DNA of 53,150 nucleotides from a virus (IMGVR_UViG_2537562195_000010), one strand, 5' to 3'; counted from the stretch's first letter, positions 4,363-21,918 are shown. Numbers and translations are program-made. The notes: generated from the letters alone by a model not told the origin.

Positions 4363-4899
4363 TATCGCGTCCTCAACAATGAATTTTGTGATGTGGTGCC
4401 TGGTGCCTCCAGGTGACGTTAACCAGTTAACAATTAACGCCGGATTGTTAGTTGATGTCTGTTACGCCAGTAAAAGACCGCTTGTTTTAACTGTTCCGCG
4501 TGCGCTTAGCCGCATTCACCGCATCACAAAATACACTTTAAAAATGGCGGATATCCATTTCCGCCGAATCACCAGAAAAGTGATAACAGAGGTTGTTGTG
4601 GCGGTGTTGTCACTCAGGCGCATGGTCAACCTGACAACCCGGTACATTTTCTGGAGCAATGGAGGAAGCCCCAGCCATACTTACCGCCGCGCCATTTCGC
4701 GGATTGCCACAACCGGAAGCGCACGATCGAATTAAATTTAACGACAAGCCTTATATTCTCGCCGTGCGCTTTCGTGTTATGCCCTGACTTTTCAGGGATA
4801 TGTTCTTTCAGCAAACTGTCAGTGCCGGATTCTTATCCGTGTCCGGCGCACGACCACACGTGACAGCGTGTTGGTCTCCATCATTAACCCGGAACCTCT

Positions 4900-14520: not shown

Positions 14521-15178
14521 CCAGTATTTACAGTTTGTTCGTGAGCAACTCATGATTGCCACTGCGGATCTTAGTGGGTCGACAAAAGGCCAGCTGGAAG
14601 TCTGGCAGGAAAATGCCCTGTTCGATACAGGGCGTTGCAGACGCAAAAAAATTCGTTACCGCGATGAGGTAACCGGAAAAATGATCACGCGGGATAATCC
14701 CCCGATCCCGGGTAAACAATCACTGGCGAAAGGCTCATCAATTGCCCTGGTCAGTCCGGTTGAGTTTTCGACATCATCATGGCGACGCGCCGTTCTGTCT
14801 CTTGAAGAACATCATAAAGCCTGGCTGCTGTGGTGTTACAGCGGTAGCATTTGCTGGGAGCATCAGATCGCGATAACGCAGTGGGCGTGGACTGAATTTA
14901 ATGCTCAATCCGGTACCAGAAAAATTGCAGGAAAAACTCTGGTGCGCCTGAAGACGTTGATCTGGTTGGCGGCGCAGGCGGTAAAAGCTGAGCTTTTTGG
15001 TGGGGAAGGTTACGAATACCAGGAACTGGCGTTACTGGTGGGAGTAACAACCAAAAACTGGTCCAAGACATTTACTGGTCACTGGGTTGCAATGAAACAC
15101 ATTTTTCATCGGCTGGATAGTGAAGCTTTATTGTTGGTGGAGGGAACACGTTCAAAACAAAAGGCGGCATTTTCATAG
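14513..15178 (+). CDS. Late-gene antitermination protein Q
   Basis: 221 aa; phage antiterminator Q family by sequence character and position (after rusA, before the late promoter/terminator); ATG 14513 with GAGGTG RBS, overlapping the rusA stop. Confidence 0.8.
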   Translation: MNNQYLQFVREQLMIATADLSGSTKGQLEVWQENALFDTGRCRRKKIRYRDEVTGKMITRDNPPIPGKQSLAKGSSIALVSPVEFSTSSWRRAVLSLEEHHKAWLLWCYSGSICWEHQIAITQWAWTEFNAQSGTRKIAGKTLVRLKTLIWLAAQAVKAELFGGEGYEYQELALLVGVTTKNWSKTFTGHWVAMKHIFHRLDSEALLLVEGTRSKQKAAFS

Positions 15179-15185
15179 CAAAGTA

Positions 15186-15214
15186 TTGCAAAAGTAGATA
15201 AAAAGGCATATATT
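15186..15214 (+). promoter_or_regulatory. Putative late promoter PR' (TTGCAA-17-TATATT)
   Basis: Seen directly: -35 TTGCAA (15186-15191), 17-bp spacer, -10 TATATT (15209-15214), directly downstream of Q. Confidence 0.5.
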
Positions 15215-15264
15215 TCGTGTAAATCTGATATTTTGCCGTTATTATACGTGATGGCAAAGCCACT

Positions 15265-15290
15265 AAAACCCGTGACCGAGCGGGTTTTTT
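15265..15290 (+). terminator. tR'-like rho-independent terminator
   Basis: Hairpin 'AAAACCCG-TGACCGAG-CGGGTTTT' followed by T-run, ~50 nt downstream of the putative PR'. Confidence 0.6.
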
Positions 15291-16667: not shown

Positions 16668-17726
16668 ATGTTTAATACTGTAAAAATATCCAGTTGTGAG
16701 TTAATCAACGCCGACTGCCTGGAATTTATCCGGTCGTTACCCGAAAATTCTGTTGACCTGATAGTCACGGACCCGCCGTACTTTAAAGTGAAGCCTGAGG
16801 GCTGGGATAACCAGTGGACGGGTGATGAGGATTACCTGAAATGGCTGGACCAGTGTCTGGCGCAGTTCTGGCGGGTGCTGAAACCTGCCGGAAGTCTTTA
16901 CCTGTTCCGTGGCCATCGCCTGGCGTCTGACATTGAAATCATGATGCGTGAACGCTTCAGTGTGCTGAACCATATTATCTGGGCGAAGCCGTCCGGACGC
17001 TGGAACGGGTGCAACAAGGAAAGCCTGAGGGCGTATTTCCCCGCCACAGAGCGCATTCTGTTCGCGGAACACTATCAGGGGCCGTATCGCCCGAAAGATG
17101 ATGGCTATGAGGCGAAGGGCAGGGCACTGAAACAGCATGTGATGGCTCCGCTGATTGCTTACTTTCGTGATGCGCGTGCTGCCCTGGGGATAACGGCAAA
17201 ACAGATAGTGGATGCCACAGGAAAGAAAAACATGGTGTCGCACTGGTTCAGTGCCAGTCAGTGGCAGCTACCGAACGAAAGCGATTATCTGAAATTACAG
17301 GCGCTGTTTGCCCGGGTGGCAGAAGAGAAGCATCAGCGGGGTGAACTGGAAAAGCCCCACCACCAGCTGCTGGAGACGTATACTTCACTGAACCGGCAGT
17401 ATGCGGAACTGCAGAGTGAATATAAGCATCTGCGGCGGTATTTTGGCGTGACGGCGCAGGTGCCGTACACGGATGTGTGGACGCATAAACCGGTGCAGTA
17501 CTATCCCGGGAAACATCCGTGCGAAAAACCGGCAGAAATGCTGCAGCAGATAATCAGTGCGAGCAGTCGTCCGGGTGACCTGGTTGCAGATTTCTTCATG
17601 GGGTCGGGTTCGACAGTCAAAGCCGCGATGGCGCTGGGGCGTCGTGCAACTGGCGTTGAGCTGGAGACTGAACGTTTTGAGCAGACGGTCAGGGAAGTAC
17701 AGGATTTAGTCAGTCAGAATGGATGA
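16668..17726 (+). CDS. DNA methyltransferase (beta-class N6-adenine/N4-cytosine, DPPY motif)
   Basis: 352 aa; motif IV 'DLIVTDPPY' near the N-terminus and motif I 'DFFMGSGST' near the C-terminus (beta-class order); no adjacent restriction endonuclease, so likely an orphan phage methylase. Confidence 0.85.
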   Translation: MFNTVKISSCELINADCLEFIRSLPENSVDLIVTDPPYFKVKPEGWDNQWTGDEDYLKWLDQCLAQFWRVLKPAGSLYLFRGHRLASDIEIMMRERFSVLNHIIWAKPSGRWNGCNKESLRAYFPATERILFAEHYQGPYRPKDDGYEAKGRALKQHVMAPLIAYFRDARAALGITAKQIVDATGKKNMVSHWFSASQWQLPNESDYLKLQALFARVAEEKHQRGELEKPHHQLLETYTSLNRQYAELQSEYKHLRRYFGVTAQVPYTDVWTHKPVQYYPGKHPCEKPAEMLQQIISASSRPGDLVADFFMGSGSTVKAAMALGRRATGVELETERFEQTVREVQDLVSQNG

Positions 17727-17766
17727 TATTGCAGGATTAGTTACGTACCGTTATTATCATGCGCCC

Positions 17767-17842
17767 GGCCCTTTAGCTCAGTGGTGAGAGCGAGCGACTC
17801 ATAATCGCCAGGTCGCTGGTTCAAATCCAGCAAGGGCCACCA
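17767..17842 (+). tRNA. tRNA with CAU anticodon (Met or lysidine-modified Ile2)
   Basis: Hand-folded cloverleaf: acceptor GGCCCTT/AAGGGCC, D-arm GCTC...GAGC, anticodon loop CTCATAA, T-arm GCTGG-TTCAAAT-CCAGC, encoded CCA. Confidence 0.85.
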
Positions 17843-17850
17843 TATCCATA

Positions 17851-17927
17851 CCGCCATTAGCTCATCGGGATAGAGCGCCAGCCTTCGAAGCTGGCTGCGC
17901 GGGGTTCGAGTCCTCGATGGCGGTCCA
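17851..17927 (+). tRNA. tRNA-Arg (anticodon UCG)
   Basis: Hand-folded cloverleaf: acceptor CCGCCAT/ATGGCGG, anticodon stem CCAGC/GCTGG with loop CTTCGAA, T-loop TTCGAGT, encoded CCA. Confidence 0.85.
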
Positions 17928-18205
17928 TTATCAGCATTATGCGTTGTTGGTTCTGATGAGTGAATCATTGTCTTTTGAGCAACAGGCTATCATATAAGAT
18001 AGCCTCAGACTTCCTTGTTTATTCTCGCCGGATGCTTCGTAGATATTTGCAGGCATCTGTATGCAGGGGTATTATTGCGGCATATATCATCCGGAAAAAT
18101 AAAAACTACATGCTGATCCGGAGATGATAGTTACAAGTCCTCCCGGATCCCGCATATTTACTATATTTTATAGATAATTGTTCTTGTTAATATGGAGATG
18201 GATAA

Positions 18206-18634
18206 ATGTATTGCCGTGCTGTACCGGTTCTTGTTTTGATATTAGCCAGTCTGACAACTGGCTGCACAAAAGATGTATCGACAAATAATTATGATGCTTC
18301 TCTGTATCACTCAGATAAATTAATAAAGTCACAAAATTTGAGCTCATCGGAACGTAGCCCTGATGCCAGTGAAGAAATCCGGCAGTATGCCATTCAGGTC
18401 AGGAAAGCCATAGAAGAACAGTTAAAGGATGCGAGTAAGTATTCAGGAAAAGAGTGTTCACTGAGAATGTATATGGCCCCGAATGGTCTTCTGCTACAGG
18501 TTAAAAGAGAAAGCGGTGATCCCGATTTATGTCGTGAAGCGATGAATGCAGTAAAGAATGCTGATATACCATCACCACCGTCTTCAGGAGTATATAAAGC
18601 ATTTAGAAATGGCGTGCTGGATTTTAAACTCTGA
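18206..18634 (+). CDS. Lipoprotein with TolA C-terminal (domain III)-like domain
   Basis: 142 aa; signal peptide with lipobox-like 'LTTGC'; C-terminal 'YAIQVRKAIEEQLKDASKYSGKECSLRMYMAPNGLLLQVKRESGDPDLCREAMNAVKNADIPSPPSSGVYKAFRNGVLDFKL' closely parallels the E. coli TolA C-terminus as I recall it (...GDPALC...KIPKPPSQAVYEVFKNAPLDFKP); AT-rich moron. Confidence 0.7.
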   Translation: MYCRAVPVLVLILASLTTGCTKDVSTNNYDASLYHSDKLIKSQNLSSSERSPDASEEIRQYAIQVRKAIEEQLKDASKYSGKECSLRMYMAPNGLLLQVKRESGDPDLCREAMNAVKNADIPSPPSSGVYKAFRNGVLDFKL

Positions 18635-18700
18635 CAGGGGGGAGAAGATTTTCTCCTGTCCTGATGATTTTGGGGCGCTGGAAAGATATTGTGCTGTGAA

Positions 18701-18950
18701 GTGTTAAATCCCTCACAATTCAGTAAGTTGACAGTTGCCTGTCAGACTGAGCATTTGTTAAAAAAATTTCGCATGGTGAATCCCCCTGTGCGGAGGGGCG
18801 ACTGGTGAACGGTATGATCTCTTTGATGATCGTAAGCGAGAATACGCGGGTTTGGTGTCACCGGGCTGAACTCACCGGGAGGCACCCGGCACCATGCTCA
18901 TGGTGATACAGAAATGCGGCTTCAGCCCCTCTCCGGAGGGGCTTTCTTAT
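18701..18950 (+). repeat. Structured repeat unit A (family of five; possible sRNA gene or promoter-terminator cassette)
   Basis: Contains the conserved blocks 'GTTAAATCCCTCACA', 'TTGTTAAAAAAA', hairpin 'GGTGAATCCCCCTGTGCGGAGGGGC', hairpin 'CACCGGGAGGCACCCGGCACC' and terminator 'GCCCCTC-TCCG-GAGGGGC-TTTCTT' (18925-18948). Confidence 0.7.
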
Positions 18951-19110
18951 GGACAAAAAAAGCCCGCGCTGGGAGACGCGGGCGGCAAGGAATAAACAAT
19001 AAAACGTGAAGTAATACTTCAACTGGCGAATAATACCCGACAGTAATCACTCTGCGCAATAGCGTGGCCTTTTTCGAATTGCGGGCTGTAGTCTCCCTTC
19101 TGCTGGGTGT

Positions 19111-19266
19111 CCTGGTTGCAGATTTCTTCATGGGGTAGGGTTCGGCAGTTAAAGCAGCGATGGCGCTGGGGCGTCGTGCAACTGGCGTTGAGCTGGATAC
19201 CGGGCGTTTTGAACAGACTGCGCAGGAAATCAGGGATGTATTTAGCGGGAGCGGTTTGCAGAAGTA
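19111..19266 (+). pseudogene. Remnant of a DNA methyltransferase 3' end (duplicate of the C-terminus of the 16668..17726 gene)
   Basis: Near-identical to 17578-17726 ('CCTGGTTGCAGATTTCTTCATGGGG...GGCGTCGTGCAACTGGCGTTGAGCTGGA...') but with an in-frame TAG ('FFMG*') and no upstream gene body. Confidence 0.6.
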
Positions 19267-19330
19267 ATCTCCCAAAATGCCATTTTTGGAATATACTGGT
19301 ATTAAGTCTTTTTGCTAAGGTTAATTCAAA

Positions 19331-20056
19331 ATGGATGTTGCCTGCTCTGTGGTCCTGATTCGCTATCCGATAGATATTTTTCTTGAAAAAGAAAAAGTTT
19401 CACTCGATGCCGGAAGTGTTATGCTTGTTGCCAGAAATATAAGAGGGCTTTTCTGTGCTTATGCCGACAGAGTGAAAATGGCAGATATAAGTAACAGCGT
19501 CGTCAATCAGTATCTGGAAAGGGAGTGTGAACTGACGGAGTATACACCGACAAAAATTCCTCTTTATTTGATGTCTGATATTTACAATACGGAACTGGCG
19601 GAGGCTTTAATAACCCAGCATAGTGAATCCAGTGATACTTTGAAGGATTTCTCTGTTATAACCGCATTTTCATGTATCTCCTTATTTGCAACAGACAGAC
19701 GTCTGCCATTATTTTTGTCCGGTGCTGTAAATAATATCAGCTGTAAAGTAAGGGCTATAATTCAGACCGACATATCGGCAGGCTGGATGCTTGGTGTGAT
19801 TGCATTACAATTGCATATGAGCGAAAGCTTGTTGAAGCGAAAACTTAAGGATGAAGGTTATAGCTTTAGTCGGTTGTTGCTGGAGGAGCGAATGCGTGTT
19901 GCTGTTAATCTTGTATGTTTCCAGCGAGAGTGTGGACAAGCGATAGCGGAAAAATGTGGTTACTCAAGTAAGTCCTACTTCATTTCTGTATTTCACCAGT
20001 ATTATGGTGCACCACCTGAGAGCTATGCATATTTGCAGAAAGCAGACGTTATCTGA
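19331..20056 (+). CDS. AraC/XylS-family transcriptional regulator (prophage-encoded)
   Basis: 241 aa; C-terminal double-HTH region '...LHMSESLLKRKLKDEGYSFSRLLLEERMRVAVNLV...IAEKCGYSSKSYFISVFHQYYGAPP' typical of AraC-type regulators; AT-rich island. Confidence 0.75.
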   Translation: MDVACSVVLIRYPIDIFLEKEKVSLDAGSVMLVARNIRGLFCAYADRVKMADISNSVVNQYLERECELTEYTPTKIPLYLMSDIYNTELAEALITQHSESSDTLKDFSVITAFSCISLFATDRRLPLFLSGAVNNISCKVRAIIQTDISAGWMLGVIALQLHMSESLLKRKLKDEGYSFSRLLLEERMRVAVNLVCFQRECGQAIAEKCGYSSKSYFISVFHQYYGAPPESYAYLQKADVI

Positions 20057-20144
20057 TGTTTTTCATCAGGCATATATTGATTGACTGTATTAGATATAGT
20101 CTGAATGTGTTCAGCATAAAAAGTTATAATCATTTGGTGTTTGC

Positions 20145-20423
20145 GTGAATATTGATGAGAAAATCAGATGTAGCCAACTGTTACAGCGTATTGAAGCCGT
20201 CAATGTGGAACGAACAAAGGTCTTCAGTCGTCTGACAGTTTTATTTTGTACCCCTGATCGACGTTCAGGTCAGGAGATGGTTCTTCTGGATGTAGATGCA
20301 CTTCGGAACGTCTGTGAGGAGTTCACCGCGGCTAATTCGGAGTTACTGAGTCTTGTTCAGGAGTACAACAGAATTGCAGGTAGTAACGGTTTTGATGAAA
20401 TCAAAATTATATCCCGTGGATAA
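20145..20423 (+). CDS. Hypothetical protein downstream of the AraC-family regulator
   Basis: 92 aa ORF with GTG start; AT-rich; no family recognised. Confidence 0.4.
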   Translation: MNIDEKIRCSQLLQRIEAVNVERTKVFSRLTVLFCTPDRRSGQEMVLLDVDALRNVCEEFTAANSELLSLVQEYNRIAGSNGFDEIKIISRG

Positions 20424-20671
20424 AACATATCCTGTATATTTATGTTGTTACATACAGGCGCTTTTAGTATCTGCCGCACGGCAGTTGTACTTCAGAATAA
20501 GATGCTTTTGTGACTGGTGGTGTTGTATCTGGGGTTAGCCAGGAGGCAGGTTCAGAGAGTCCGGTGGTAATTATGTGTATGCAGTGGTTGTTGCTGTACC
20601 GTGGGCAAGTTCTGGAACTGGCTTCGTCCATTGTAGATGATTGTTAGCTGGATATCAGTTACCTCATGGAA

Positions 20672-20907
20672 ATGTTAAATGACTCACAATTCGGTTGATG
20701 GGCTATTGTCTGATCGATGGAAGTCTTGTAAAAACGAGCCAGCATAGTGAATCCCCCTGTGCGGAGGGGCGTCTGACATGGTCTCCATAGCGATGGTCAC
20801 AATACGCAGATTCAGTAGTCAGGCTGAATCTACCGGGAGGCACCCGGCACTATGCTGCTTATGGTGTATACATAGCGATCGGCCCCTCTCCGGAGGGGCT
20901 TTTTTTG
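20672..20907 (+). repeat. Structured repeat unit B
   Basis: Same conserved blocks as unit A ('GTTAAATGACTCACA', 'AGTGAATCCCCCTGTGCGGAGGGGC', 'TACCGGGAGGCACCCGGCAC', terminator 'GGCCCCTCTCCGGAGGGGCTTTTTTT'). Confidence 0.7.
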
Positions 20908-20929
20908 TGCGGGAAAAGGCTGTGTTGTT

Positions 20930-21175
20930 AAGTGTTAAATTCCTCACAGTTCAGATGGTTGATGCTTGCCTGTCTGAGGGGGAGTTGTTAAAAAAGTTCT
21001 GCATGGTGAATCCCCCTGTGCGGAGGGGCGACTGGTATGATTTGCATCTTTTCTGTTGTAGGCAATGCAAACGCGGGTTCAGGGACACCAGACTGGACTC
21101 ACCGGGAGGCACCCGGCACCATGTTCATGATGATACAGATACGCAGTGTCAGCCCCTCTCCTGAGGGGCTTTTTT
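20930..21175 (+). repeat. Structured repeat unit C
   Basis: Same conserved blocks; terminator 'AGCCCCTCTCCTGAGGGGCTTTTTT' at 21151-21175; variable central segment. Confidence 0.7.
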
Positions 21176-21202
21176 ATGCAGGAAAAACGCTGTGTTGTGA
21201 AA

Positions 21203-21436
21203 TGTTAAATTCCTCACAGTTCAGATGGTTGATGCTTGCCTGTCTTACGGGGAGTTGTTAAAAAAGTTCTGCATGGTGAATCCCCCTGAGCGGAGGGGCA
21301 TATCAGCGCAGGTGTTTCTACTCTATCCTTTCTGTGCGGGTTCAGGTGCTGATACTGAACTCACCGGGAGGCACCCGGCATCATGCATATGGTTAACAGA
21401 CAAGTAGCGAAGCCCCTCTCCGGAGGGGCTTTTTTA
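21203..21436 (+). repeat. Structured repeat unit D
   Basis: Same conserved blocks; terminator at 21411-21436. Confidence 0.7.
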
Positions 21437-21462
21437 TGCAGGGAAAAGGCTGTGTTGTGAAA

Positions 21463-21690
21463 TGTTAAATTCCTCACAATTCATGAGGTTGATGATTGTC
21501 TGATTGATGAGGAGTTTGTTAAAAAAAACGGGCATGGTGAATCCCCCTGTGCGGAGGGGTGATATCGTATCATTTCCTGTGTGGCCGACTGATATCACGG
21601 ACATTTGTTCACCGGGAGGCACCCGGCACCATGCAGTATACAGAGATTAGGCATACATCCAGGCTCCTCATCGCAGGAGCCTTTTTACAT
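21463..21690 (+). repeat. Structured repeat unit E
   Basis: Same conserved 5' blocks; central segment forms its own inverted repeat ('GTGATATCG...CGACTGATATCAC'); different terminator hairpin 'GGCTCCT-CATCGC-AGGAGCC-TTTTTA'. Confidence 0.65.
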
Positions 21691-21918
21691 GTAAAAAAAA
21701 CCGCTCCTGGGAAGAGCGGTTGGCAAGGAAGCAAGGAATAAATAACAAAACGTGAAGTAATTTATTCAGCACCCTAATAATACCTTAGAGTAATCACCTT
21801 GCGCAACTGTAAGGGCGTATTTCTTTTTTGCGGGCTGTTTTTCTGTGTGACTTTTGTGTTTCCGGAGGTCAGCCCGTGCCTTCTCTGACTCAGAACATTA
21901 TCCCGGCCGGGAGGATTC

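Follow-up and report, generated by a model that had tools for sequence, protein, structure and literature searches.

An unusual one-plus-four layout of STnc100-family small-RNA genes in the late region of an Escherichia coli lambdoid prophage

The window, the whole stretch of viral DNA analysed here (IMGVR_UViG_2537562195_000010; 53,150 nucleotides), carries the late region of an E. coli lambdoid prophage. Its genes follow the order Q (PF06323), methylase, tRNAs, TolA-like gene, unit A, AraC island, units B–E, SASA esterase, and holin. Units A–E are five repeats located on the plus strand in the same orientation, on the strand and at the coordinates given in the first-pass annotation (Table 1). 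A core 19-mer (CACCGGGAGGCACCCGGCA) is present in five plus-strand copies at one mismatch or fewer, as compared with 0.00 copies expected from 100 shuffles. The features described earlier as common to the units are all present, namely the GTTAAAT..C.CACA block, the TTG(C/T)CT...TGT(T)AAAAA segment, the 5' hairpin, the CCGGG-AGGCA-CCCGG hairpin, and the GC-rich terminator.

Table 1 Positions of the units, their parts, and associated features in the window.
Feature	Position	Strand	Basis or remark
Sixth, divergent copy of the structured domain	4389–4524	-	nhmmer domain profile, E = 3.6e-6, profile positions 2–112
GTTAAAT..C.CACA block	A 18703–18717; B 20674–20688; C 20934–20948; D 21204–21218; E 21464–21478	+	
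Unit A, complete STnc100-family sRNA gene	18701–18950	+	Rfam RF02076, 172.4 bits, model 1–206/206
Unit A promoter	-35 TTGCCT 18735–18740; extended -10 TGT-TAAAAA 18756–18764	+	
Unit A predicted RNA	18771–18948	+	178 nt
Unit A RNA segments	5' domain 18771–18798; variable insert 18799–18872; core 18873–18897; linker 18898–18924; terminator 18925–18948		
Convergent partner 1, small-RNA-like gene	18955–19059	-	Sequence reading, terminator scan
Partner 1 parts	-35 TTGCGC 19059–19054; -10 TATTAT 19035–19030; predicted RNA ~19023 to 18955; terminator stem 18983–18962		
AraC-family regulator island	19293–20578	+	Clean indel relative to L055/L013 (blastn junctions)
Unit B	20672–20907	+	Rfam, 119.5 bits
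Unit B promoter	-35 TTGTCT 20706–20711; -10 TAAAAA 20729–20734	+	TG directly adjacent
Unit B predicted RNA	20742–20907	+	166 nt
Unit B RNA segments	variable insert 20770–20830; core 20831–20855; linker 20856–20881; terminator 20882–20907		
Unit C	20930–21176	+	Rfam, 140.8 bits
Unit C promoter	-35 TTGCCT 20966–20971; TGT-TAAAAA 20986–20994	+	
Unit C predicted RNA	21001–21176	+	176 nt
Unit C RNA segments	variable insert 21029–21099; core 21100–21124; linker 21125–21151; terminator 21152–21176		
Unit D	21203–21436	+	Rfam, 140.1 bits
Unit D promoter	-35 TTGCCT 21236–21241; TGT-TAAAAA 21256–21264	+	
Unit D predicted RNA	21271–21436	+	166 nt
Unit D RNA segments	variable insert 21299–21361; core 21362–21386; linker 21387–21411; terminator 21412–21436		
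Unit E	21463–21690	+	Rfam, 141.3 bits; directly upstream of DUF1737/SASA esterase gene
Unit E promoter	-35 TTGTCT 21496–21501; TGT-TAAAAA 21517–21525	+	
Unit E predicted RNA	21532–21687	+	156 nt
Unit E RNA segments	variable insert 21560–21609; core 21610–21634; linker 21635–21662; terminator 21663–21687		
Convergent partner 2, paralog of partner 1	21693–21806	-	
Partner 2 parts	-35 TTGCGC 21806–21801; -10 TATTAT 21782–21777; predicted RNA ~21770 to 21693; terminator stem 21721–21699		

An Rfam search, suggested in the first-pass annotation, identifies all five units as full-length matches to STnc100 (RF02076; 119–172 bits, model positions 1–206 of 206), whose gathering score is 47 bits. The search found no homology to any other Rfam family. 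The five repeats are copies of an already catalogued small-RNA gene of prophages, whose family, Rfam STnc100, has EcOnc27/sRNA103 and PasD among its relatives. The earlier proposal of a small-RNA family with a constant scaffold and variable parts is supported, and the finding is a rediscovery of a known family, not a new class. The layout of one copy plus a tandem array of four is unusual. STnc100 is among the most frequently annotated sRNAs in bacterial genomes. In EDL933, 11 copies are transcribed according to RNA-seq, one of them confirmed by Northern blot, and the copies are dispersed at about one per prophage. STnc100 adjoins Shiga toxin genes, and variants of the Stx2-phage copy have recently been linked to the prediction of HUS. 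Overexpression of sRNA103 raises fimZ, but no STnc100-type RNA has so far an established function or a validated direct target.

The family spans prophages of Enterobacteriaceae, Erwiniaceae, and Yersiniaceae, and our alignment comprises 103 homologs (<90% identity) from at least 25 Enterobacterales genera. Its members lie just upstream of the lysis genes, in many phages between cargo and lysis genes; the units occupy the same place between Q/cargo and lysis genes. Most phages carry a single copy. Tandem arrays, with members that diverge in linker and arm tips, make up ~12% of the occurrences, and those in Pantoea, Superficieibacter, and uncultured phages are positioned directly upstream of holin-lysozyme-Rz. 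The reported STnc100 copies are dispersed, whereas four are in tandem here, and a literature search retrieved no description of tandem arrays of this family.

Each unit contains a promoter-like element of the sigma-70 type, with a -35 element TTGCCT or TTGTCT, a spacer of 17–18 bp, and a -10 element TAAAAA. TGT precedes the -10 element in units A, C, D, and E. Unit B is the weakest promoter match of the five, because TG directly adjoins TAAAAA. The RNA is predicted to start at the G of GCAUGGUG. In every unit, this position coincides with the published 5' end of PasD2 (NC_011601:741157), the G of GCATGGTGAATCC, which is preceded by TTGACT-18-TAAAAA-7. Across 221 non-redundant homologs, a TAnnnT signal is present at -10 to -5 from the domain start, and RpoD binding at STnc100 promoters has been reported by ChIP-exo in Salmonella LT2 (PMC10794520). 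The -10 element of the units lacks the usual final T. A generic sigma-70 scan detected no plus-strand promoter within the units, so the promoter call rests on the mapped 5' end of PasD2 and the family-wide -10 signal.

A strong intrinsic terminator closes every unit; 15 terminator-like sites were found as compared with 3.0 expected. The earlier assignment of a promoter-like element and a terminator to each unit is supported. Across the family, 65% of 240 occurrences have a terminator downstream of the domain (median distance, 40.5 nt), as compared with 14% of random windows, and about one third of the occurrences have no detectable terminator. The length of EcOnc27 predicted from the equivalent start site is ~173 nt, shorter than the Northern bands of ~235/247 nt, suggesting that longer isoforms, either started upstream or processed, may exist.

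The units have a common architecture, composed of a five-helix junction of 105–128 nt, a largely unpaired linker of 25–28 nt, and a Rho-independent terminator. The junction consists of a closing helix P1, a bulged hairpin H1, P2 and P4 with variable tips, and the hairpin P5 (CCGGG-AGGCA-CCCGG). RNAalifold recovers P1, H1, P2, P4, and P5 from an unfitted MAFFT alignment of the 103 homologs. Compensatory changes occur at 13 of the 24 pairs, and paired cells amount to 97.5%, as compared with 41–47% when the partners are slid. The covariation score is 0.344 as compared with 0.04–0.08, a value reached by none of 500 shuffles. Covariation analysis, another check proposed in the first-pass annotation, thus strongly supports the five-helix junction. 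P5 never varies in the alignment, but this invariance is an artefact, because the P5 18-mer served as the search pattern for homologs. Covariation favours a bulged H1 (CCCCC/GG-A-GGG) over the pairing in the Rfam model, and the first ~29 positions of that model probably correspond to promoter DNA, as they lie upstream of the mapped 5' end of PasD2. The units otherwise share with STnc100 the prophage location, the closing helix, the hairpins, and the terminator.

Individual folds agree with the family architecture. Unconstrained MFE folds of units B, C, D, and E adopt it, with a G-U pair in P1 of unit D; for unit A, the fold with the closing helix enforced has an energy of -73.0 kcal/mol, as compared with -73.9 kcal/mol for the MFE. 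The whole transcripts fold at z scores of -2.1 to -3.5. Relative to the other units, unit B carries compensatory changes in P1 (GCAUAGUG/CACUAUGC) and P4 (AGAUUCAG/CUGAAUCU). The invariant junction and loop nucleotides are GUGAAUCC, the H1 loop U-R-W-G-C with a conserved bulge, and the AGGCA pentaloop. The part conserved in distant homologs is exactly the domain, excluding the linker. The H1 loop (GUGC) could in principle form a kissing interaction with the P5 loop (GCAC), but this was set aside on inspection: the pairing comprises 4 nt only, is absent from PasD, and is not restored by compensation in copies with another H1 loop (GUGU in Sakai, GAGC in unit D). Nor was a tRNA-like junction retained, since ARAGORN calls only the two real tRNAs and no further support was found.

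The first-pass annotation described a central segment of ~60–70 nt that differs in every unit, is self-complementary, and may serve in targeting. The central inserts (50–74 nt) are indeed unrelated, with a between-unit identity of 57% as compared with 53 ± 4.6% for shuffles. However, an insert folded alone is no more stable than dinucleotide shuffles (z, -1.2 to +0.8), and only the bases of the enclosing helices P2 and P4 have covariation support. The linker between the core and the terminator is a second variable segment (64% identity, as compared with 56 ± 5.5% for shuffles). In PasD2, the predicted seed UGUGAG sits in the linker just upstream of the terminator; in EcOnc27, the Hfq CRAC peak covers the last hairpin, the linker, and the terminator. 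The central stem-loop is therefore not supported as the targeting element.

EcOnc27/sRNA103 is an Hfq-bound sRNA of EHEC O157 (Sp5/933W), encoded 3' of stx2B and found in O157 Sakai. It has been detected as an Hfq-CRAC peak and a Northern band, and its 247-nt form is destabilised without hfq. The 3' half of unit E is orthologous to EcOnc27/sRNA103, and its linker matches the reverse-complemented Northern probe at 31 of 34 positions (at most 9 for the other units). The promoter and 5' domain of unit A are nearly identical to those of the Sakai copy. EcOnc27 also resembles the units in position, 3' of a cargo gene, 5' of an esterase gene, and convergent with a minus-strand sRNA. The two loci differ in the central insert, in the minus-strand partner, which is not AsxR here, and in the cargo, stx2 there and TolA-like and AraC-like genes here; moreover, Sakai has a single copy.

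PasD1 and PasD2 of EPEC E2348/69 are Hfq-dependent RNAs with RIL-seq targets and Northern signals (Pearl Mizrahi 2021; Zhu, Shabalina and Storz 2026 preprint). The latter work already proposes a common ancestry of PasD and STnc100 and finds the PasD copies distant from one another, not in tandem. PasD2 is the closest relative with mapped interactions. PasD has in common with the units the 5' end GCAUGGUGAAUCC, the promoter geometry, the closing helix, the linker-plus-terminator layout and, as in unit E, a position upstream of a SASA esterase gene. In contrast, P5 is degenerate and H1 is different in PasD, PasD2 matches the domain profile weakly (E = 1.3e-5), and the seed (TGTGAG) is absent from the five unit transcripts. 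Judged by BLAST-level similarity to PasD1/2 and by the seed upstream of the terminator, the units are not PasD, although they are related to it.

Pairs of sRNAs termed dyads, AgvB/EcOnc06 and AsxR/EcOnc27, occupy the moron site of lambdoid prophages (Tree 2014). Similarly, opposite each of units A and E lies a convergent small-RNA-like gene on the minus strand that has a promoter and a terminator of its own, and both pairs are located between the late promoter and the lysis genes; units B–D have no partner. The duplication of the sequence after units A and E, noted in the first-pass annotation, is confirmed (18985–19015 and 21731–21761, 94%; 19018–19059 and 21765–21806, 76%). Partner 1 is identical at 49 of 52 positions to the EPEC RIL-seq sRNA candidate E2348C_1409.E2348C_1408.IGR. 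Partner 2 is positioned as AsxR is opposite EcOnc27 in Sakai and matches no Rfam family at threshold. AgvB and AsxR are recognised by a match to RF02702/RF02703 or by a conserved ~42-nt 3' region (...GTATCTCATGC.ATTGCCCGAACCCA.TCGGGC). Segments of 141–146 nt containing the partners do not match RF02702/RF02703 even at E ≤ 10, and the published AgvB/AsxR sequences are unrelated. An identity of the partners with AgvB, AsxR, or Esr41 was therefore rejected; they lie outside the AgvB and AsxR families.

The short PR' transcripts (lambda 6S RNA, StxS) and the HK022 put RNAs are likewise structured RNAs made by phages close to a promoter, with a terminator behind them, in regions under the control of antitermination. 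However, the units are located 3.5–6.3 kb downstream of Q, which ends at 15178. A separate PR'-like promoter site (15186–15214) and a hairpin with a T-run (about 15264–15290) directly follow Q, so the units were rejected by position as a PR' promoter with a 6S-like transcript.

The sixth copy of the domain, which the first-pass annotation had missed, is located ~30 nt upstream of a 62-aa ORF (4362–4174) in the leftward early operon. No terminator was detected downstream of it, and it is absent from the Rfam output at the gathering score. Its leader position suggested a put-like antiterminator RNA, which was rejected, since the domain profile (nhmmer --max, E ≤ 10) has no match in the HK022 genome.

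Tandem sibling sRNAs are known, such as OmrA/OmrB, PrrF1/2, Listeria LhrC1–4, and Vibrio Qrr, in which the conserved part is usually the seed. Like these, the units are adjacent paralogs with their own promoters and terminators and with conserved and divergent segments; unlike in these, it is the scaffold that is conserved, variation being found in the linker and arm tips, and the genes are phage-borne. We consider it likely that each unit is an independent STnc100-family sRNA gene of the prophage late region, and that the five encode sibling RNAs that bind Hfq and base-pair in trans. By analogy with the homologs, the units would be transcribed in the lysogen from their own promoters into discrete RNAs of ~156–178 nt, Hfq would bind through the linker and terminator region, and the RNAs would act in trans by base pairing. 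Specificity may be set by the linker, the site of the PasD seed, and possibly also by the P2/P4 tips, in which case the array would supply five siblings with different target sets. In the lysogen, the unit terminators would also prevent transcription that comes from the cargo genes upstream from entering the esterase and lysis genes, and Q-modified polymerase would read through them in lytic growth. The array itself may have originated by duplication and recombination among the units.

Several points run counter to the sRNA reading. Base-pairing sRNAs do not usually need a structure as elaborate as a five-helix junction with invariant loops that is conserved in at least 25 genera, and the sixth copy is an mRNA leader without a terminator. 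In addition, the PasD seed is missing, the -10 element is imperfect (the promoter of unit B being weaker still), and the Northern bands of EcOnc27 exceed the predicted length. It is possible, albeit unlikely, that the junction is the functional entity, which binds a protein or the transcription or decay machinery or shields the 5' end, base pairing being secondary and the variable P2/P4 arms being tolerated insertion points or specificity determinants. The covariation, the restriction of conservation to the domain, the domain start always at the predicted +1, and the occurrences without a terminator, the sixth copy among them, fit this explanation. A related proposal, which we regard as similarly doubtful, is that the ~105–130 nt junction is an autonomous RNA module, one that, for example, serves as a ligand for a protein of the host or the phage or governs RNA fate from the 5' end. 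Phages would then attach the module either to a linker and terminator, yielding sRNAs, or to mRNAs, as in the sixth copy; the hypervariable arms would have diversified to determine specificity, and a tandem array would amount to a repertoire of such variants. However, PasD has lost part of P5 and is still an Hfq-dependent sRNA with many RIL-seq partners, the invariance of P5 arises from the search, no homology links the junction to the put RNAs or other Rfam families, and no protein partner is known.

It is improbable that the units are mainly cis-acting stacked transcription stops, which would insulate the esterase and lysis genes from TolA-like/AraC-like cargo transcription in the lysogen and yield short RNAs as by-products. 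Four strong terminators are stacked just before these genes, family members take such a position in many phages, and the terminators of the convergent partners make the site bidirectional. However, a terminator alone leaves the covarying structure of 105–128 nt and the promoter at a fixed distance unexplained, the homologs are abundant Hfq-bound RNAs, and a single copy suffices in most phages.

The units flank the cargo genes, and the first-pass annotation proposed that they had captured the AraC cargo. The island contains an AraC-like ORF (19331–20056; Pfam HTH_18/HTH_AraC) and a 92-aa ORF (20145–20423). In the related loci L055 and L013, exactly the island is absent, leaving the junction GGAAT^GCAG. 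The island borders are in unique sequence, at a distance of ~340 bp from unit A and ~95 bp from unit B. Because these junctions lie outside the units, there is no support for cargo capture by the units, which were rejected as island junctions. Unit copy number varies among otherwise near-identical loci (1+4, 1+3, and 1+2; unit C is absent from the 1+3 locus L070), Sakai EcOnc27 is mosaic, its 5' part resembling unit A and its 3' part unit E, and a methyltransferase 3' remnant (19107–19268) marks past recombination. Copy-number variation and mosaicism between conserved blocks are consistent with homologous recombination among the units. That the units are themselves mobile or recombinogenic repeats, MITE-like elements or cassettes for cargo capture and exchange, is very unlikely and, for the AraC island, largely refuted. 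The first-pass annotation had named a match to an IS/MITE family as evidence against its proposal; the units have neither terminal inverted repeats nor target-site duplications, no inverted repeats other than the terminators were found, no mobile-element annotation underlies the match, and orientation and genomic position are fixed, so an IS or MITE identity was rejected.

Mechanical ORFs cross parts of the array (e.g., 20778–21164, 128 aa; 21225–21407), but every unit has at least one stop in each of the six frames, no ORF is common to the five, the units differ by indels whose lengths are not multiples of three, and variation follows base-pairing rather than codon patterns; coding potential was therefore rejected, the earlier non-coding claim stands, and there is hardly any chance that the units encode small proteins.

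To what is known of this family, the present analysis adds a start site consistent with the PasD data, a covariation-supported five-helix model, a range over the prophages of three bacterial families, and a share of tandem arrays of about one in eight occurrences. Should the siblings differ in their targets, a single prophage could rewire several pathways of its host simultaneously; should the junction be the active part instead, STnc100, EcOnc27, and PasD would have to be reinterpreted.

The five units lie where the first-pass annotation placed them, all on the plus strand. Allowing a single mismatch, five copies of the core 19-mer CACCGGGAGGCACCCGGCA are found (chance expectation 0.00). The region has 15 terminator-like sites versus 3.0 expected, and each unit ends with one. 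No open frame runs through any unit, in agreement with the earlier view that the units are non-coding, and the sequence 3' of units A and E is duplicated, as had also been noted. An Rfam scan of the whole window gives five full-length matches to RF02076 (STnc100), with bit scores of 172, 141, 141, 140, and 119.5 against a gathering score of 47. Therefore, the units belong to a catalogued family, and the proposal that they are a family of small RNAs holds; the family is already known. EcOnc27 (sRNA103), an Hfq-crosslinked and Northern-verified sRNA located 3' of stx2B in O157, overlaps STnc100. Eleven STnc100 copies are transcribed in EDL933, one of them verified by Northern blot, and a 2026 preprint (Zhu, Shabalina and Storz) proposes common ancestry and structure for the EPEC RIL-seq sRNAs PasD1 and PasD2 and STnc100. 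Unit E and the reverse-complemented EcOnc27 Northern probe agree at 31 of 34 positions, the other units at nine or fewer, and the promoter and 5' domain of the Sakai EcOnc27 copy are nearly identical to those of unit A. The units are members of the known STnc100 family, which includes EcOnc27/sRNA103 and to which PasD is related.

Promoter geometry is common to PasD2 and units A-E. The published PasD2 (NC_011601:741157-741328, 172 nt) has its 5' end at the G of GCATGGTGAATCC, and the upstream sequence reads TTGACT-18-TAAAAA-7. In the units, a -35 element TTGCCT or TTGTCT is separated by 17-18 bp from the -10 element TAAAAA, which is preceded by TGT in units A, C, D, and E and followed, after 6-8 bp, by the G of GCATGGTG. 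Among 221 non-redundant homologs, a TAnnnT signal is found at -10 to -5 relative to the domain start. With a predicted start at GCAUGGUG, the RNAs would be 156-178 nt long. From 5' to 3', they would comprise an 8-bp closing helix (P1), a bulged hairpin (H1), two arms with variable tips (P2 and P4), the invariant CCGGG-AGGCA-CCCGG hairpin (P5), a linker of 25-28 nt, and the terminator. Unconstrained minimum-energy folds of units B-E give this single architecture, and unit A is less than 1 kcal/mol away from it. The gene architecture of the units is shown here.

Positions of the units, their predicted RNAs, the convergent partners, and the divergent domain copy
Feature	Span	Predicted RNA	Strand	Upstream CTCACA	Linker	Remarks
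Unit A	18701-18950	18771-18948	+	18712	18898-18924	
Unit B	20672-20907	20742-20907	+	20683	20856-20881	
Unit C	20930-21176	21001-21176	+	20943	21125-21151	
Unit D	21203-21436	21271-21436	+	21213	21387-21411	
Unit E	21463-21690	21532-21687	+	21473		
Partner 1	18955-19059		-			small-RNA-like gene, TTGCGC-18-TATTAT promoter and own terminator
Partner 2	21693-21806		-			paralog of partner 1, TTGCGC-18-TATTAT promoter and own terminator
Sixth, divergent domain copy	4524-4389		-			domain profile, E=3.6e-6 over full length

Viral contigs and one genome per species were searched for the invariant 18-mer to gather homologs, copies were located with a profile built from the five units, and 103 domains with <90% identity were aligned with MAFFT. 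On this unfitted alignment, RNAalifold predicts P1, the bulged H1, the bases of P2 and P4, and P5, with compensatory changes at 13 of the 24 pairs. Paired cells amount to 97.5%, versus 41-47% with the partners shifted by 1-3 columns; the covariation score, 0.344 versus 0.04-0.08, is reached by 0 of 500 shuffles. The invariance of P5 in the alignment is a consequence of the search, which used the P5 sequence as its pattern. In the window itself, compensatory changes are seen in P1 and P4 of unit B. The whole transcripts fold better than shuffles (z -2.1 to -3.5).

Identity between the units is 97% in the 5' domain, 94% in the core, 83% in the terminator, and 75% in the upstream region, and falls to 64% in the linker (shuffles 56 +/- 5.5%) and 57% in the central insert (shuffles 53 +/- 4.6%). 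The insert identity is near the shuffle level, indicating that the central inserts are unrelated between units. The insert had been described as variable and self-complementary; the variability stands, but the self-folding is no better than that of shuffles (z -1.2 to +0.8). The results do not support the central loop as a targeting element. In PasD, the predicted seed UGUGAG, complementary to the target motif CUCACA, lies in the linker directly 5' of the terminator, and the Hfq CRAC peak of EcOnc27 covers P5, the 3' strand of P1, the linker, and the terminator. Therefore, the better-supported candidate for target contact is not the central stem-loop but the linker, a segment that likewise varies from unit to unit. 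The PasD seed UGUGAG is absent from all five units. Most likely, the units are five sibling sRNAs that would each be transcribed independently, bind Hfq, and act in trans, with terminators that would also insulate the lysis genes; from the homologs, we infer that they are expressed, bind Hfq, and pair with targets.

The upstream block of every unit contains CTCACA, the motif found in PasD targets by RIL-seq (seed UGUGAG). It is ~53-59 nt 5' of the predicted start and would therefore be transcribed only as part of longer isoforms (EcOnc27 migrates at ~235/247 nt) or when transcription continues from the preceding unit. In units A-D, the linkers start with AUGGUG, AUGAUG, or AUGGUU, a repeat of the closing helix 5' strand that is missing from unit E, and this start could pair with the closing helix 3' strand to form an alternative hairpin. 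In addition, the AraC-like ORF (19615-19630) and the 5' end of unit B (20739-20754) share a 16-nt identity, CCAGCATAGTGAATCC, on the same strand. The closing-helix 3' strand of unit B plus two bases (CACUAUGCUG) is therefore complementary to the AraC-like mRNA, which may be due to chance.

The window represents a lambdoid prophage of E. coli and shares 99.9% identity with several STEC genomes; at least 80% of 18600-21900 is present in 79 of 5,426 complete genomes. E. coli 2013C-4282 (NZ_CP027579), with an identity of 99.9%, carries the locus. Genes for a DUF968 protein, RusA, Q (PF06323), and a membrane protein are followed by a DNA methylase gene, tRNA-Ile(CAU), and tRNA-Arg, then by a TolA-C-domain lipoprotein gene, unit A opposite minus-strand partner 1, a methylase 3' remnant, the AraC-family gene, a 92-aa ORF, units B-E with unit E opposite partner 2, and genes for a DUF1737/SASA esterase, holin, and lysozyme. 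The tRNA at 17767-17842, with a CAT anticodon, is called tRNA-Met by ARAGORN; PGAP and the Sakai annotation of its ortholog give tRNA-Ile (ileZ-type), then tRNA-Arg(TCG), as in Stx phages. The convergent partners share conserved UUACUUCACGUUUU.UUGUUUAUUCCUUGC, and their placement opposite units A and E matches the 'dyad' arrangement known from at least eight Sakai prophages. Neither matches an Rfam family, and the published sequences of AgvB, AsxR, and Esr41 differ from theirs, ruling out these identities. Partner 1 is identical at 49 of 52 positions to the EPEC RIL-seq candidate sRNA E2348C_1409.E2348C_1408.IGR.

The units had also been proposed as possible recombination substrates that captured the AraC cargo. 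Two related loci (L055 and L013) are collinear with the window over 17001-19292 and resume directly at 20579, indicating a clean indel for the AraC island (19293-20578). The indel junction, GGAAT^GCAG, is in unique sequence outside the units, ~340 bp 3' of unit A and ~95 bp 5' of unit B. The units do not form the island junctions, and capture of the island by the units is not supported. Recombination among the units themselves fits their varying number in loci that are otherwise similar (1+4 in the window, L012, L017, L058, and L064; 1+3 in L070; 1+2 in L013 and L055) and the mosaicism of EcOnc27, which combines A-like and E-like parts. Between partner 1 and the AraC island, 19107-19268 is a remnant of the DNA methyltransferase gene 3' end at 17557-17726 (PGAP pseudogene). 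This remnant suggests that recombination joined two cassettes of the type 'methylase 3' end - cargo - sRNA dyad' that came from different phages. PR' is not among the units, since a separate PR'-like promoter (TTGCAA-17-TATATT), followed by a hairpin and T-run (AAACCCGTGACCGAGCGGGTTTTTT), lies directly 3' of Q at about 15186-15290; its predicted ~70-nt transcript resembles the PR'/tR' short RNA (StxS-type) of Stx phages.

EDL933 has one STnc100 copy per prophage, deposited Stx phages mostly carry a single copy, and the preprint describes PasA and PasD copies as distant from one another, not tandem. Loci retrieved with a single-copy pattern, from one genome for each species, comprise 88 singletons, 6 doublets, 3 triplets, and 3 quadruplets (median spacing 252 bp); adjacent copies occur in 71 viral contigs. 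In Pantoea, Superficieibacter, and uncultured phages, holin-lysozyme-Rz follows the arrays directly and in the same orientation. The family is present in at least 25 genera of Enterobacterales, and in 65% of 240 non-redundant occurrences the domain has a terminator 3' of it, at a median distance of 40.5 nt, versus 14% of random windows. Our literature search found no description of STnc100-family tandem arrays; this arrangement, together with the refined five-helix model, adds modestly to what is known of the family. Several domain copies (L125, L111, and L146), a four-copy array among them, are on the 400-kb plasmid pAPP145_2 of Pantoea sp. App145, not on a chromosome, and upstream of this array lies a gene for a DUF1133 protein.

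In the sixth, divergent domain copy of the window, GGUGAAU is retained. Compensatory changes are present in H1 and P5: H1 has the same UAAGC loop and bulged A but its stem differs (GCGGC/GC-A-CGC), and P5 reads CCUGG-AGGCA-CCAGG. Rfam does not report it at the gathering score. No terminator was found downstream, and the leftward early operon has a 62-aa ORF that starts ~30 nt 3' of the copy, which together suggest that the STnc100 domain can serve as an mRNA 5' module. The junction itself may therefore have a function.
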